Shown here: positions 26,446 to 64,000 of the stretch, in pieces | Layout of the letters: each line of letters begins with the position of its first letter | How positions within the stretch are numbered: the stretch's first letter is position 1 | Sequence record: PZ452598.1 | From: a phage | Reading direction: 5' to 3' (one strand) | Length of the DNA: 64,000 nucleotides | The notes under the pieces: generated by a model | The model's database searches: none | Told to the model about the DNA's origin: nothing | What the model saw: only the letters and a program-made list of their open reading frames with translations | Position numbers and translations under genes: made by a program

Positions 26446-26894
26446 TCAACAATCACAATTTCTAATTTAGAGGAATATGTATCTAAAATCCCCTCAATAA
26501 TATCCCAGTTCCCTTTACCTATGCCTGCACCAATCCTAGGCATATAGATTGTAGGTTTAATCAGTTTATTTTCACCAAACTCATTTAATTCTAACATACA
26601 ATTCATTAAAGCGGAATACTCAAAATTTGGCCCTGGTTGAAATTGAGTATAAAGATTGAAGCAGTAAGCTTTATGAGTCCTAAAGTATTTTTCATAGACT
26701 GAGTAAGAACCGAGTTTAGTTACATCACCCCATTCAGTCTGTAATTTATCAGCTTCCAAAATTTTAGGGAAAGCTTTGGTTAATTGACCCGCTACGCCTG
26801 AACCCATAGTATGAAAACAATTACATCCATGTGCAATATTTTTACCTTCAGCGAAAAGGGCGACAATATCGCCCTTGATATATTTTACAATCAT
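26427..26894 (-). CDS. macro-domain-like protein (155 aa)
   Basis: N-terminal IVKYIKGDI...AHGCNCFHTMGSGVAGQL resembles macro-domain ADP-ribose-binding glycine-rich loop. Confidence 0.45.
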   Translation of the reverse strand: MIVKYIKGDIVALFAEGKNIAHGCNCFHTMGSGVAGQLTKAFPKILEADKLQTEWGDVTKLGSYSVYEKYFRTHKAYCFNLYTQFQPGPNFEYSALMNCMLELNEFGENKLIKPTIYMPRIGAGIGKGNWDIIEGILDTYSSKLEIVIVDWEPLL

Positions 26895-27238
26895 CTAGTA
26901 CTCAATCCTCGATTATAAGAATCTACCAAACGGTCAACCATTGAATGACAAGCGGCTTTATCTTTCTCCTCCGCAACTGAACATTCTAAGGTATTCCACT
27001 TTTTAGCATATCGTTTTAACAATGTATCGTTTTTGTATCTGCTTGATTTATCTCTTTCTCCGTCTTTATATGCATATATTAATTTCTGTGCAAATTCAGC
27101 TTGGCATGCCTTATTTTTCCCACAATAATCTGCCGCAGTGCGGTTTACATATTCTCTAATTTCAGTATATGATGTATCTGCTGACGCAGAAGCAGAAAAT
27201 GAAATTAATCCTATACATAAAACCAAAATTTTAGTCAT
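26891..27238 (-). CDS. secreted small protein with signal peptide (115 aa; positional vs)
   Basis: signal peptide MTKILVLCIGLISFSASASA; four Cys. Confidence 0.45.
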   Translation of the reverse strand: MTKILVLCIGLISFSASASADTSYTEIREYVNRTAADYCGKNKACQAEFAQKLIYAYKDGERDKSSRYKNDTLLKRYAKKWNTLECSVAEEKDKAACHSMVDRLVDSYNRGLSTR

Positions 27239-27776
27239 TTACTATTTCCAAAAGTTTATTATTTTTAAGGTAATTAGCCTTTTCTAGGACTTCAGAAGCA
27301 TATTTAGAACCTGCTTTAACATTCCATCCCGAATTATAAGAGGATATTGCTTTTCTTATATCGCCCTTATGTATATTTAACCAATAAGAAAGTTCAATGT
27401 ACGCCCAGGAAGCTGAATTGGATCGTTTATTCAACATTCTTTTTATTTCAGCATCGGTCATATTATAACCAAGTTCCTTAACTCTTGCTCGCATAGTAGG
27501 CAAATAATTTTGGAACATTCCGTAGGCGTGATGCTTTGGTTTAGATTTTAAATTAACTCCGCCAGAGCTTTCTTGCCATAAAATGGCAGCCATTATATGA
27601 CCTAATCCGCTCTTGTGGATATTTTTGTGTGTTTTATATTTTCCATCCTTAGAAAATTGTTCCCCGAATTGATACGCGTAACGCATGTTATCGAGTTGGA
27701 CATTACTGAAAGTATGCTCGGAGCTATGTGCCATCATTGAAATGGCCAATAGACCAGCGAGTAGTGCTTTTCTCAT
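27231..27776 (-). CDS. secreted lytic transglycosylase-like protein (181 aa)
   Basis: signal peptide MRKALLAGLLAISMMAHS; SLT catalytic-type motif ILWQESSGG and downstream YGMFQ. Confidence 0.55.
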   Translation of the reverse strand: MRKALLAGLLAISMMAHSSEHTFSNVQLDNMRYAYQFGEQFSKDGKYKTHKNIHKSGLGHIMAAILWQESSGGVNLKSKPKHHAYGMFQNYLPTMRARVKELGYNMTDAEIKRMLNKRSNSASWAYIELSYWLNIHKGDIRKAISSYNSGWNVKAGSKYASEVLEKANYLKNNKLLEIVND

Positions 27777-27783
27777 GCTTACC

Positions 27784-28245
27784 TCATTGAGTTTTAATTA
27801 CTGCTTTAGAAGCCTTTCCTGGTAAACGACGACTGTTGATAATTGCCATCCTACATTGAAGTGACGGGTCTTTGAACTTCTCGTTAGGTTTACAAACTGT
27901 AAATCCAAGCCAAAGATTTCCATCTGTGATTTCTAAACGTCCAGGACGATATTCAACCCCATCAATAAAATCCTCGTCAATGTCAGGACGCGGAGGCATA
28001 CTCAGGAATTCATTAACTTCTAAAACATGGTCTTTTATTTTATGGAATAATTCAAAAACGTATGTCTCATCAATCTCCCGTTGAATTGCGCGATCAAGAA
28101 GATGTTGAGAATATTTTAGATGAAACGATGAGACTCCTGCTGCTTTTGATGCCTCACGAATCTCATTGTTAATTTGACGAAACTCCGACTCAAAGTGACG
28201 ACGAAGCTTATTTCGACGGATAAAAACTTCTGTATTGATAGTCAT
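27784..28245 (-). CDS. regB: endoribonuclease RegB (153 aa)
   Basis: 153-aa ORF MTINTEVFIRRNKLRRHFESEF...; size/position match T4 regB. Confidence 0.75.
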   Translation of the reverse strand: MTINTEVFIRRNKLRRHFESEFRQINNEIREASKAAGVSSFHLKYSQHLLDRAIQREIDETYVFELFHKIKDHVLEVNEFLSMPPRPDIDEDFIDGVEYRPGRLEITDGNLWLGFTVCKPNEKFKDPSLQCRMAIINSRRLPGKASKAVIKTQ

Positions 28246-28270
28246 GTTATTCTCCTCTTAACTGATAGAA

Positions 28271-28305
28271 AAATTATACCACAGTCAAGAGGAAAAGTAA
28301 ACAGT
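28271..28305 (-). promoter_or_regulatory. early promoter GTTTAC-N18-TATAAT upstream of regB
   Basis: plus 28298-28303 gtaaac, 28273-28278 attata with TGTGG extended -10. Confidence 0.55.
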
Positions 28306-28625
28306 TATTCTTTAAATCTAATCAATTTATTCATAGACTTTGAAACTTCGGCACGAACCTCATGTAGATTTTTGAGCTGTTCAAGACGCTGCGTATAGTA
28401 AGCAATTTCATCTTCTTCGAGACAGTCCTGCGAATCTTCTTTAAGATAACGTGCATAGTCCTGGAAAGCGTTACGGACTACTTCCTGGAAGTCATCAAGA
28501 CTTTGAATTTTCTTAGGAGCAACAGATACACGACGAGGGGCAGTATAATACTCATAACCAAACCCTGCGCTTAATTGAGCCATTAGTATTTTTCCTCTGG
28601 TTGGAACACTGCACGACAAGCCCAC
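28305..28625 (-). CDS. hypothetical protein (106 aa)
   Basis: ORF. Confidence 0.45.
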
Positions 28626-28885
28626 ATACTGGCTTCTTTGAGTTTCGTTTTAGCAATAGTTAACTGATCGAGACTTTCAGCATAATTCTTCGCGAATTCA
28701 CAGTCTTCGCAATTATCTAGTGCTTCCCAGAATTCATCATATAAAGCATCAAAGATAAGTCCTAAACGAACTTCAGCGTCTTTAATAGCATTTACTTTAC
28801 CGATTTTCTCTTCAGTATGTGGTTTATAACCCTTAATATCTTCAATCATATTTGACTTCCTCACCAGTACATAAATCGTATTCAA
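28583..28885 (-). CDS. hypothetical small protein (100 aa or 88 aa from MIEDIKGY); positional vs.4, candidate cyclic-oligonucleotide sponge Acb2
   Basis: position in regB-denV small-gene block; identity not verifiable by eye. Confidence 0.4.
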
Positions 28886-29063
28886 CTAAACGAATAGGTT
28901 CATGAATGCCATAGCCTTGAACAGAAATTTCTGTCGTAGGATAAATTCCATCAATATCACCCATATTCCACGCTTCATTAAATTGCTGTTCGCCTGAGTT
29001 ACTAAACCACTCGGCGAAAGCATTTAGCACATCTTCAGAACCTTCAATAATTATCTTTGCCAT
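28842..29063 (-). CDS. hypothetical acidic protein (73 aa)
   Basis: ORF. Confidence 0.45.
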   Translation of the reverse strand: MAKIIIEGSEDVLNAFAEWFSNSGEQQFNEAWNMGDIDGIYPTTEISVQGYGIHEPIRLVEYDLCTGEEVKYD

Positions 29064-29425
29064 TACAAACTTTCAGTAAAGGTACGAGCGATAACGTCGC
29101 GCTGCTGTTCCGGAGTCAGAGAGTTAAAGCGAACTGCATAACCGGATACACGGATGGTCAGCTGCGGATATTTTTCCGGATGCTTAACTGCATCTTCCAG
29201 AGTTTCACGACGCAGAACGTTAACGTTCAGGTGTTGACCACCTTCAATTTTAACTGTAGGTTGTGGCTCAATTTCAATTTCACGGGCATGCAAACCATAG
29301 AAAATTTCTGGGTCTACAAAAGAGTCCTCTTTAAAGGTTTTAGAGACAATAATTCGTGCTTGAATACCATCTTCAAAATAAATAGTACCTTTATGTGTGC
29401 CTTCAAGAATTTGATATGCTTTCAT
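29063..29425 (-). CDS. glycyl-radical cofactor protein (GrcA/YfiD-like, 120 aa)
   Basis: C-terminal RVSGYAVRF glycyl-radical signature and [10 protein letters not shown] block as in pyruvate formate-lyase C-terminus/GrcA. Confidence 0.75.
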
Positions 29426-29432
29426 ATAAACC

Positions 29433-29762
29433 TCAATTAGAAAATAAATTTATCCAAGATTGTTCTTTAATTAAAAATGGCTCAGAATCATATGCCATTA
29501 AACTTTGCGTAATTAATCCTTTAAAAGGTCCATCAATAAATTCCATGGTAAAATATGGAATTTTATTCATTAGCCGTGCATTAGGAGCAGTGCACAAAAC
29601 TCTGCATCCTTTGAATACGCCTTTTTGTAATTTGTATTGCTTGGGATAAAATTCGCTCAAAATGTTATTTTTTGCCAAAATTTCAAAATGATTCACCAAT
29701 TTATTTTTAATAGTTTTTGGCGAAAAATAAAGATATTCGAAAAGCTGAGTGTCTGTCATCAT
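29433..29762 (-). CDS. hypothetical protein (109 aa from MMTDTQLF)
   Basis: ORF; start overlaps stop of upstream P-loop gene. Confidence 0.4.
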
Positions 29763-30409
29763 TGCATTCCGATTACGAAAAACTGTGGACGAGTAATACC
29801 ACCAATGCAACATTTACTATTACAGCAGTAGTGTACGGTGTCAATATGGACACTATAAATCTTATCCATATCAGGAGATTTGACAGGCTCATCAATTATA
29901 TACAAAATTCGCGAAAGCTTTAAACCTCTGAACTTGCTTCCTTTATTACCAATAAAACTGCGTACAGAATCAGTAAATAAACGAAAACGTATATCATCAT
30001 TAGAATAACGCGAAAATTCCTTTTTGATGTTATTTGCAGAAATTTTAGCATAAGCTGAAGTATTAGAAAGAACAATAACTGTTCCGCCATCATACAACCA
30101 ATTAGCAGCAAAGTTAGTCACAGCAATTGATTTACCGGATTGACGTCCACCATCTAGTCGAAGTGTACAATACTGTTTAAGTAAGTCTTCAAATGGCGGG
30201 ATATATTCGTTTTTACAAATTTCTTCTACTCTAGCATCAGAATGGTGTGTAAAAGCATTCATCAGGGATAGATAAGGACCAGTTAAAAATGTTCTCATTT
30301 CTTCTCTATAAGTTTGGGCCATTCCGTGGCGCATGAATTGTCCATTTCTGTATTTACCCATTACCGCGCTTGGGCTCGACCTTATTACAGGTTGGCGGGA
30401 ATCCCTCAT
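29759..30409 (-). CDS. P-loop NTPase-like protein (up to 216 aa)
   Basis: Walker A GGRQSGKS and Walker B-like ILYIIDEP. Confidence 0.5.
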   Translation of the reverse strand: MRDSRQPVIRSSPSAVMGKYRNGQFMRHGMAQTYREEMRTFLTGPYLSLMNAFTHHSDARVEEICKNEYIPPFEDLLKQYCTLRLDGGRQSGKSIAVTNFAANWLYDGGTVIVLSNTSAYAKISANNIKKEFSRYSNDDIRFRLFTDSVRSFIGNKGSKFRGLKLSRILYIIDEPVKSPDMDKIYSVHIDTVHYCCNSKCCIGGITRPQFFVIGMQ

Positions 30410-30435
30410 ATAATCATGAGGTCCAGGTTGTTCCC

Positions 30436-30852
30436 TTATGCATAAATCGCCTTACCGTAGTATTTGTACCAAGTAGGACGTTGTGCAATTTTTTCATCTA
30501 AACGAGCTTGTGATATAGCAATAGAAGCTTCATGGGGAATATAATCACCACGGAATTCCTGAGGAATATCACTAATATCCTGGACTGTAGTATCCTTGAT
30601 ATTAAAACCACGTTTTAAACATTCAGCTATAAGCTCAATTTGACGTTTACGTAAGAACTCGAGCTTATCGTAAAAGAATGTAACATGACCTGCGCCAAGG
30701 ATAAAAGTAGGACTGATTTTAAAATCACGAACACGTTTACCGTTAGCAACATGCTTACGAACTGCACCAAAAACACGCGGCAATTCACGATATTCAGCCA
30801 TTAAGTGTTGGTCAGCCAATTCAGATACTAAAGTAAGGTTGATACGAGTCAT
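30436..30852 (-). CDS. denV: endonuclease V, pyrimidine-dimer DNA glycosylase (138 aa)
   Basis: sequence [34 protein letters not shown]... matches recalled T4 endo V. Confidence 0.9.
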
Positions 30853-30880
30853 TTTAGTGTTCTCCTGTAGTTGATAGGTC

Positions 30881-30912
30881 TATAGTATCATACCTACAGG
30901 AGATGTAAACTG
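30881..30912 (-). promoter_or_regulatory. early promoter GTTTAC-N17-TACTAT upstream of denV
   Basis: plus 30905-30910 gtaaac, 30883-30888 atagta; flanked by inverted repeat CCTGTAG/CTACAGG. Confidence 0.5.
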
Positions 30913-31215
30913 TTATTTATCTTTAATTGCTTTAGCTGCTTCGATAGCCGCTTGCTGAAGGTCATCCATAGACATGCCGAACTTAGAAGCAAAGTTATCA
31001 ATTTTCTTTTCGACGGCATTCAAAGGCTTGGCCTGTTTACCTTCATTAGCGCCAGGAAGAGCGAGAATACGCTCTCTGTCAATATAAAGGCTTACAAGTT
31101 TCTTACGGTCTTTATCGGGCAAATCATGAAATGAATGGGCCTTTTTATTTACAGCGGCTTCTAATTTACCTGCGCCCACTCGCGCTTCGGCAATAAATTC
31201 TTGATATGTTTTCAT
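30913..31215 (-). CDS. ipII: internal protein II (100 aa) with capsid-targeting N-terminus
   Basis: N-terminal MKTYQEFIAEA shared with ipIII; basic/Ala-rich. Confidence 0.8.
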   Translation of the reverse strand: MKTYQEFIAEARVGAGKLEAAVNKKAHSFHDLPDKDRKKLVSLYIDRERILALPGANEGKQAKPLNAVEKKIDNFASKFGMSMDDLQQAAIEAAKAIKDK

Positions 31216-31252
31216 ATGTTTCCTTTAAATGTAAATATTTTTATTATTCTAT

Positions 31253-31297
31253 CCTAGAATTGTGATAATATATTCACAATTCTAGGAGTTGTAAACT
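31253..31297 (-). promoter_or_regulatory. early promoter upstream of ipII with perfect 12-bp inverted repeat CTAGAATTGTGA-N8-TCACAATTCTAG around the -10
   Basis: plus 31290-31295 gtaaac; palindrome 31253-31284. Confidence 0.5.
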
Positions 31298-31330
31298 GCT
31301 TTTATTTAAGCGTCCCAAGTATAAGCTTTA

Positions 31331-31912
31331 TTAAGAATTACCACGGGCTGCATTAGCAACGGCGTAAGCGTACTGAATATTAGCGTCTTTAAACTTACCT
31401 TTAGAGGTATCTATTTCTGCCTTAAAGCCGCCTTTAGTCATAACATCGGCAAATTCTTTACGGAAAGCCATTGCATCAAGACCTTTCCATGATGATTTAT
31501 GCTTGGCAAATTCAAGACCTGCGAAGTTGACAGCTTTAGCCAATTTATTATCAATGACCCATTTACCGGCTTTAGGCACAAACTTCGGGCCTTTCTGTTT
31601 AGAGAACAGTTTTAAATTCCAGCGGCGAAGGTCTGCATCAGCTTTAACAAATTCTGAGTCTAAGTTACTAGCAACAACATCTTCAATATGAGCAAATTTA
31701 AGTCCGTCAACTTCAATATTTAAATCGGTACGCCAGCGAAGTCCTTCCCAAGCGAAGGCTTTAAAGTCGGAAGCCTTTGTAGCTAAGTACCGTTCAATAG
31801 GAGCTGTTTTAGGGTCAAAGCCGTTTCCTGATCGGTAGGTCCACTCATCTTTGTTAATGCCTTTGGCCTTTACTACAGAAGCTTCGGCAATAAATTCTTG
31901 ATATGTTTTCAT
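31331..31912 (-). CDS. ipIII: internal protein III (193 aa) with capsid-targeting N-terminus
   Basis: N-terminal MKTYQEFIAEA; size 193 aa. Confidence 0.8.
   Translation of the reverse strand: MKTYQEFIAEASVVKAKGINKDEWTYRSGNGFDPKTAPIERYLATKASDFKAFAWEGLRWRTDLNIEVDGLKFAHIEDVVASNLDSEFVKADADLRRWNLKLFSKQKGPKFVPKAGKWVIDNKLAKAVNFAGLEFAKHKSSWKGLDAMAFRKEFADVMTKGGFKAEIDTSKGKFKDANIQYAYAVANAARGNS

Positions 31913-60863: not shown

Positions 60864-64000
<3,137 letters not shown>

Follow-up and report, generated by a model that had tools for sequence, protein, structure and literature searches.

The vs.3-vs.8 interval of phage T4 is very probably an early block of mechanistically unrelated accessory genes, including two known immune-signal sponges

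Do the six small genes packed between regB and denV of a T4-type phage hold new inhibitors of bacterial immunity? We studied this question in a 64,000-nucleotide stretch of phage DNA (sequence record PZ452598.1; hereafter the window), for which an earlier note, made from the sequence alone, had hinted at something new. The window is phage T4, and the interval is the annotated vs.3-vs.8 cluster between regB and denV: a 3.2-kb query over the interval was 100% identical at the DNA level to the T4 records T4T HM137666, OZ209023, KJ477684 and others, and 99.6% identical to the old reference NC_000866. We conclude with high confidence that the interval is a tightly packed early block of accessory functions that are unrelated in mechanism. 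The hint of novelty was not supported, as four of the six genes are already in the literature with published roles or a partial characterisation: two immune-signal sponges (Vs.3 and Vs.4), a metabolic spare part (Vs.6) and a terminase-like ATPase (Vs.8). Only Vs.5 and Vs.7 are without a published role.

All six genes, together with regB and denV, lie on the minus strand, and their open reading frames (ORFs) coincide exactly with the annotated vs.3 to vs.8. By ORF and T4 annotation, denV (endonuclease V; 30436-30852) forms the upstream flank and the endoribonuclease gene regB (27784-28245) the downstream flank. Within the block, consecutive genes overlap by 4 nt (vs.8/vs.7, where the start of vs.7 overlaps the stop of vs.8 as ATGA), 1 nt (vs.6/vs.5), 8 nt (vs.5/vs.4) and 1 nt (vs.4/vs.3), and the 7-nt gap between vs.7 and vs.6 is the sole non-overlapping one among the five internal junctions. 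By tblastn, homologues were found in 702 phage records for Vs.3, 1236 for Vs.4, 989 for Vs.5, 1592 for Vs.6, 930 for Vs.7 and 1010 for Vs.8. Since each protein has homologues in 700-1600 phage records, we consider the six ORFs real genes rather than chance frames. The earlier note was right about six genes with tight junctions in this interval, but the lengths that it gave to three of them (106, 100 and about 216 amino acids (aa)) are too long. The 106-aa and 100-aa readings are maximal frames from GTG or TTG codons, and these upstream codons have no ribosome-binding sites; the ATG starts of Vs.3 and Vs.4 carry GAGGA-type Shine-Dalgarno sequences, which gives 92 aa and 88 aa, respectively.

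The clearest case is vs.4 (28583-28849, minus strand). Its 88-aa product shares 100% identity with chain A of PDB 7UQ2, an entry deposited under the name 'Vs.4', and matched the Pfam family PF24729 (Acb2_Tad1_hairpin) with 71.4 bits against a cutoff of 27. It is therefore the same protein as Acb2, residue for residue. Residues Y8 and F82 are both present; these were reported to be functionally important in T4 'acb2/vs.4', and their mutation abolishes function (Panoptes paper, PMC12657218). According to a commentary on Jenson et al., Vs.4 binds cyclic GMP-AMP (cGAMP), crystallises as a hexamer with three cGAMP and stops activation of CapV, an effector of the cyclic-oligonucleotide-based anti-phage signalling system (CBASS), and the family was named Acb2. 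As shown in the literature, Vs.4 sequesters 3'3'-cGAMP and other cyclic nucleotides, so that CBASS effectors stay inactive. The earlier suggestion that the ORF at 28583-28885 corresponds to T4 vs.4 and hence to Acb2 was correct, except that this is the known sponge itself and not a candidate, and that the 100-aa reading differs from Acb2 by 12 extra untranslated codons from a TTG without a ribosome-binding site. We also observed that a 46.6-kb siphophage (ON470622.1) carries a 30%-identical Vs.4/Acb2 homologue.

The neighbouring vs.3 (28305-28583, minus strand) encodes a second sponge. In the PDB search, Vs.3 found a full-length homologue in entry 9WIW, with an expectation value (E) of 2.6e-37, and the entry comes from the work of Chen et al. 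(Nat Commun 2026; PMC13243611). In that study, T4 vs.3 was found through mating of T4 with T6; its deletion sensitises T4 to type IV Thoeris, and expression of Vs.3 restores infectivity. The protein sequesters N7-cyclic ADP-ribose (N7-cADPR), the signal of type IV Thoeris, and was named TadIV-1; when Vs.3 to Vs.8 were expressed singly, type IV Thoeris was inhibited by Vs.3 alone (PMC13243611). The same authors reported that only 'long' TadIV-1 homologues of about 90 aa (over 80 aa) are active and that the N-terminal loop or extension is needed (PMC13243611). The product encoded here has the long form, 92 aa from an ATG with a GAGGAAA Shine-Dalgarno sequence, and does not differ from the founding member and prototype, which is T4 Vs.3; the homologue in 9WIW, which is not T4 Vs.3, has a 9-residue insertion in the N-terminal loop. 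As the literature has shown, Vs.3 works as a dimeric sponge that sequesters N7-cADPR and keeps the caspase-like effector of type IV Thoeris inactive. The earlier note had followed the heuristic that new inhibitors are found near known anti-defence genes, and here the heuristic was borne out: Vs.3, directly beside Acb2, was shown in 2026 to be a Thoeris-IV sponge. Vs.3 itself had not been singled out in that note.

A function of a different kind is encoded by vs.6 (29063-29425, minus strand). Vs.6 is a stand-alone protein of 120 aa and 13.8 kDa that matched the Pfam domain Gly_radical with 66.8 bits (cutoff 22.2) and E. coli YfiD/GrcA (PDB 6OWR) with an E of 8.6e-42; the C-terminus of pyruvate formate-lyase (PFL) was also matched. 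The motif RVSGY, of the form RVxG[FWY], lies at residues 92-96. The RefSeq name of the protein is GrcA, and PMC8683613, citing Wagner et al. 2001, describes T4 Y06I as a 'spare part' protein that restores PFL after cleavage by oxygen, and as one of just two that have been validated experimentally. The domain match, 6OWR, the motif and the Y06I literature all agree with the earlier recognition of a GrcA-like gene. Vs.6 shares with bacterial GrcA/YfiD a small stand-alone glycyl-radical domain with RVSGY, whereas its N-terminal 20-60 residues diverge. In the mechanism shown in the literature, this 14-kDa module is activated by the PFL activating enzyme and takes the place of the oxygen-cleaved C-terminus of host PFL.

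We further examined vs.8, whose whole ORF spans 29759-30409 on the minus strand and would encode 216 aa. Its homologues align to the last 83% of this frame, and nearly all of them start where the frame has M38. This codon follows AGAGAAGAA, and the upstream ATGs have no ribosome-binding site. Moreover, T4 stocks differ by a 9-bp indel at 30303/30304, just upstream of M38 in the non-conserved 5' extension; NC_000866 has the extra 9 bp (CTCTATAAG, plus strand) and hence a 219-aa annotation as compared with 216 aa here. Given the conserved start at M38, the lack of an upstream ribosome-binding site and the indel, we took Vs.8 as a protein of probably 179 aa. This conserved core with its P-loop domain occupies 29759-30298, as delimited by the relatives' starts, the motifs and the structural model. 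The 216-aa reading was rejected, as its 37 upstream codons (30299-30409) are not conserved, have no ribosome-binding site at M1 and carry an indel between stocks; this extension is probably an untranslated leader.

In the 179-aa numbering, the Walker A motif GGRQSGKS lies at residues 50-57 and the Walker B motif ILYIIDEP at residues 131-138. Among 31 relatives, down to 35% identity, the Walker A core G51-R52-Q53-x-G55-K56 and the Walker B core I134-I135-x-E137-P138 were invariant, as were R113, R124-G125 and the C-terminal Q179, and D136 was found in at least 90%. The Walker motifs noticed earlier in this ORF are thus present and conserved, and both RNA and protein of the gene are detected early in infection. 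The accompanying statement that the ORF has no other recognisable domain is outdated, since Vs.8 is terminase-ATPase-like by PHROG, by hhalign and in published work. The AlphaFold 2 model of Vs.8 (predicted local distance difference test score, pLDDT, 84; predicted template modelling score, pTM, 0.84) forms a single RecA-like P-loop domain of the additional-strand catalytic-glutamate (ASCE) type, and its best fold match appeared to be the ATPase domain of gp17, the terminase of T4, at an identity of about 12-16%. By sequence, Vs.8 weakly matched the PHROG terminase-large-subunit family (E 1.7e-5), and hhalign placed the stretch from Walker A through Walker B colinear with gp17 residues 160-274 (E 2.3e-4, probability 44%). 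A sequence search against the PDB gave sub-threshold matches only, to a DNA translocase coupling protein (E 0.11) and to the P74-26 terminase large subunit (E 1.6). Gene 17, which encodes the 610-aa terminase large subunit gp17, lies at 62169-64000 on the plus strand and ends exactly at the window edge, so that the window holds both Vs.8 and its full-length paralogue.

The comparison with gp17 also shows what Vs.8 has lost. The two proteins have in common, and in colinear order, a Walker A motif with the P-loop R-Q and a Walker B motif of the form hhhhDE. In contrast to the terminase large subunit (TerL), Vs.8 has 179 aa only, is expressed early and ends ...FFVIGMQ at residue 179, directly after the last core strand, with G-M-Q and no TTT coupling motif, and without subdomain II or a nuclease domain. 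With these parts missing, Vs.8 is best regarded as a stand-alone paralogue and not as a terminase. It would correspond to ATPase subdomain I of the terminase large subunit with the ATP-binding and catalytic residues intact. Judging from these residues, Vs.8 should be able to bind ATP and probably hydrolyses it, and the missing subdomain II, coupling motif and nuclease predict that it cannot translocate DNA alone.

This similarity to terminase has been noted by others. Evans et al. 2026 (bioRxiv May 2026; Nat Commun, 3 August 2026) picked vs.8 by an AlphaFold 3 screen and described Vs.8 as a terminase-ATPase homologue that is toxic when co-expressed with the immune sensor EcAvs2. EcAvs2 would accordingly recognise Vs.8 as if it were terminase; the toxicity upon co-expression was shown, and the binding mode is an AlphaFold 3 model. 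In the same work, the non-terminase activators Ksap1 and Ksap2 resemble Vs.8 in being small proteins of phages, in having a sheet like that of the terminase ATPase and in triggering an Avs2 sensor, and an anti-defence role of such non-terminase activators is raised (Evans et al. 2026). Unlike Ksap1 and Ksap2, Vs.8 retains the Walker motifs and a detectable sequence homology to TerL, and its link to Avs2 is through co-expression.

Vs.8 belongs to a small family with a wider structural surrounding. A full-library hidden Markov model search found 69 representatives among 1.84 billion protein clusters, all of them small stand-alone proteins. In a distant branch of seven proteins, GK[ST] of Walker A is replaced by GH[ST] and DEP by D[CV]A, which suggests an altered or lost ATPase chemistry in that branch. 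With Foldseek against the viral models of BFVD, Vs.8-like folds (template modelling scores 0.45-0.65) were found in uncharacterised proteins of 140-175 aa from Proteus phiP4-3, Vibrio JSF10, Aeromonas phiAS5 and Aes012, Acinetobacter 133 and the jumbo phages 201phi2-1, PhiPA3 and CBB. Going by these models, the predicted Vs.8-like fold is spread wider than the Vs.8 sequence family.

The remaining genes are vs.5 (28842-29063, minus strand; ORF and homologues) and vs.7 (29433-29762, minus strand; ORF and T4 annotation). Vs.5 has 73 aa and is very acidic, with an isoelectric point (pI) of 4.05, and Vs.7 has 109 aa and is basic (pI 9.1). Searches of both proteins against Pfam, NCBIfam, PADLOC and PDB, with single sequences and, for PDB, also with profiles, gave nothing above noise, and neither gene is discussed in the text of the literature searched. 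The AlphaFold 2 model of Vs.7, built from only three full-length sequences, was unusable (pLDDT 44, pTM 0.35). The Pfam accession PF26834 is attached to Vs.7 homologues. For Vs.5, the protein annotated in NC_000866 has 58 aa and, owing to a 1-bp difference at position 29013 of the window, agrees with our 73-aa protein over the first 17 residues only. The 73-aa form is the one conserved in relatives; on this comparison, we consider the 58-aa RefSeq form a frameshift artefact. The 'NA' entry of Vs.5 in the T4 proteome study may be a consequence of this frameshifted reference.

We then compared the locus with those of other T4-like phages. The order (denV)-vs.8-vs.7-vs.5-vs.4-regB was kept in the loci of six other phages, which represent five named genera and an unclassified Klebsiella phage. 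These loci were picked via Vs.8 matches, and the constant presence of Vs.8 is thus partly an ascertainment effect. Across them, vs.6 and vs.3 are often absent, PM2 is without vs.5, SEA1 has only vs.8 and vs.5, and the start-stop overlap of vs.8 and vs.7 is retained in distant genera. The public records of relatives also carry doubtful names. Homologues of Vs.3 (PDB 9WIW), Vs.7 and Vs.8 are labelled 'endoribonuclease', a name that seems to have spilled over from the annotation of the adjacent regB, and some records name Vs.7 or Vs.8 'terminase large subunit'.

How far, then, do the six genes belong together? One possibility is that the block is a plastic slot of functionally unconnected accessory genes whose order reflects ancestry alone. 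The content differs between genera while flanks and order persist, the genes are spread unevenly, with Vs.6 (1592 records) and Vs.4 (1236) wider than the others and Vs.3 (702) narrower, and the known functions are mechanistically unrelated. On the other hand, two signal sponges side by side are an unlikely coincidence, and the coupling of vs.8 and vs.7 is conserved. We consider this account quite possible, if just short of probable; it is largely compatible with our own explanation of an early block of unrelated accessory functions and differs from it in emphasis only.

A more ambitious proposal is that the whole block is a coherent anti-defence island, in which Vs.5, Vs.7 and Vs.8 are immune inhibitors as well. 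Two neighbours, Vs.3 and Vs.4, are proven sponges; the order of vs.8, vs.7, vs.5 and vs.4 is kept in five of the sampled loci, from three named genera and an unclassified Klebsiella phage, apart from the genes absent in PM2 and SEA1, and each gene occurs in about 930-1240 phage records; distant genera retain the vs.8/vs.7 overlap; Vs.5 is a small protein of high acidity; and Evans et al. suggest an anti-defence role for non-terminase Avs2 activators. In such an island, Vs.8 could, loaded with ATP, mimic terminase and serve as a decoy for receptors that sense terminase; Vs.7 would be its partner, coupled to it in translation, and the recognition of Vs.8 by EcAvs2 could be the 'guard' response of a host that meets an anti-defence protein. 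However, Vs.6 is a metabolic spare part and no inhibitor, and Vs.3 alone blocked type IV Thoeris among the singly expressed Vs.3-Vs.8 (PMC13243611). No PADLOC, Pfam or PDB family match points to an inhibitor for Vs.5, Vs.7 or Vs.8. Moreover, Vs.8 activates EcAvs2 and does not inhibit it, its invariant catalytic residues suit an enzyme better than a passive decoy, and genes of the block are gained and lost independently, as in SEA1 and PM2. We therefore regard the island as unlikely. A narrower form of it, in which Vs.8, the coupled Vs.7 and the acidic Vs.5, travelling with Acb2 across T4-like genera, form a third counter-defence function, has in our view only a rather slim chance of being correct. 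For that function, one could think of a terminase-ATPase mimic, loaded with ATP, that would weaken or redirect terminase-sensing immunity and that some Avs2 alleles would later have come to detect.

Alternatively, Vs.8 might serve DNA metabolism or packaging instead of immunity, either in mixed assemblies with gp17 or gp16 or as a small early DNA or RNA ATPase. In favour of such a role are its paralogy to the ATPase core of gp17, together with conservation of the P-loop arginine and of the catalytic glutamate in Walker B, and its position next to genes of DNA repair (denV) and RNA processing (regB). Packaging in T4 is a late function, however, and Vs.8 is expressed early; it is without subdomain II, coupling motif and nuclease domain, and its family is limited to few phages, as seen from the 69 representatives found. 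Altogether, we consider this role very unlikely, and our preferred explanation remains the block of mechanistically unrelated accessory genes.

The weakest proposal concerns transcription. The earlier note had supposed that the six genes are driven by the early promoter at 28271-28305; this is almost certainly wrong, because the promoter, although a good early-type consensus (28273-28301), is a minus-strand element directly 3' of the vs.3 stop. It consists of GTTTAC, 17 nt and TG-TATAAT, with the vs.3 stop (28305) on one side and the regB start (28245) on the other. Being 3' of the vs.3 stop, 5' of regB and on the minus strand, it is the promoter of regB and fires away from the block; the earlier claim had the form of the element right and its position and orientation wrong. 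Going upstream from the block, the first early-type promoter is again a consensus match on the minus strand (GTTTAC, 16 nt, TG-TACTAT; 30882-30909) and precedes denV. No terminator-like sites were seen on the minus strand between this promoter (30909-30882) and regB. All six genes are early at the RNA level in the supplementary tables of Wolfram-Schauerte et al. 2022; at the protein level, the same tables place Vs.7 and Vs.8 early and Vs.3, Vs.4 and Vs.6 in the middle phase, with Vs.5 not detected. Since no minus-strand terminator precedes regB and all six genes give early RNA, the denV promoter is the likeliest source of the early transcripts, and from promoter geometry the block is most probably read from it, with denV co-transcribed.

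Other regulatory elements were searched for in the same region. Neither T4 late promoters (TATAAATA) nor strict MotA-box middle promoters were found in 27700-31400. With a relaxed consensus, a weak candidate internal promoter was identified within vs.8 (29895-29924, minus strand), in which a MotA-like AGCTTTC and a perfect TATAAT are separated by 12 nt; if active, it would give a middle transcript beginning at vs.7. The CCTCAT/ATGAGG hairpin in the denV-vs.8 spacer near the 216-aa start was no more stable than shuffled sequence (z -0.52), and an Rfam search of this spacer gave no match.

Several observations weigh against an early block with these assignments. The 137-nt denV-vs.8 spacer holds no consensus promoter, although Chen et al. 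mention a 'promoter of vs.8' (PMC13243611), and an expression-atlas preprint puts vs.4 as 'predominantly middle/late', in conflict with its early RNA class. In addition, Vs.6 scores under the NCBIfam GrcA equivalog cutoff of TIGR04365 (153.3 against 170 bits), which we read as divergence of the N-terminus in a divergent phage member of the family.

Outside the block, we observed that the products of vs (115 aa) and vs.1 (181 aa), located downstream of regB at 26891-27776 on the minus strand, begin with hydrophobic N-termini that resemble signal peptides; in one T4 record, a gene of this interval, presumably vs.1, is named an SLT-domain transglycosylase. The 46.9-kb record of vB_EcoT_BCU-2 (PV290051.1) has T4-identical vs.5 and grcA and may be a partial or mixed assembly.

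Taken together, the interval reveals no new biology, as this T4 locus is the very source from which Acb2 and TadIV-1 were discovered. For annotation, the analysis offers several corrections: Vs.8 has probably 179 aa, the 58-aa Vs.5 is an artefact, and 'endoribonuclease' seems to be misplaced on homologues of Vs.3, Vs.7 and Vs.8. The transcription model of the block is corrected as well, with the regB promoter excluded as its driver. The locus has a strong record of yielding anti-defence genes. If Vs.8 and its partners did form a third counter-defence function, the structurally similar mini-ATPases (140-175 aa) from phages of Aeromonas, Vibrio and Acinetobacter and from jumbo phages would amount to a widespread class that has gone unrecognised.

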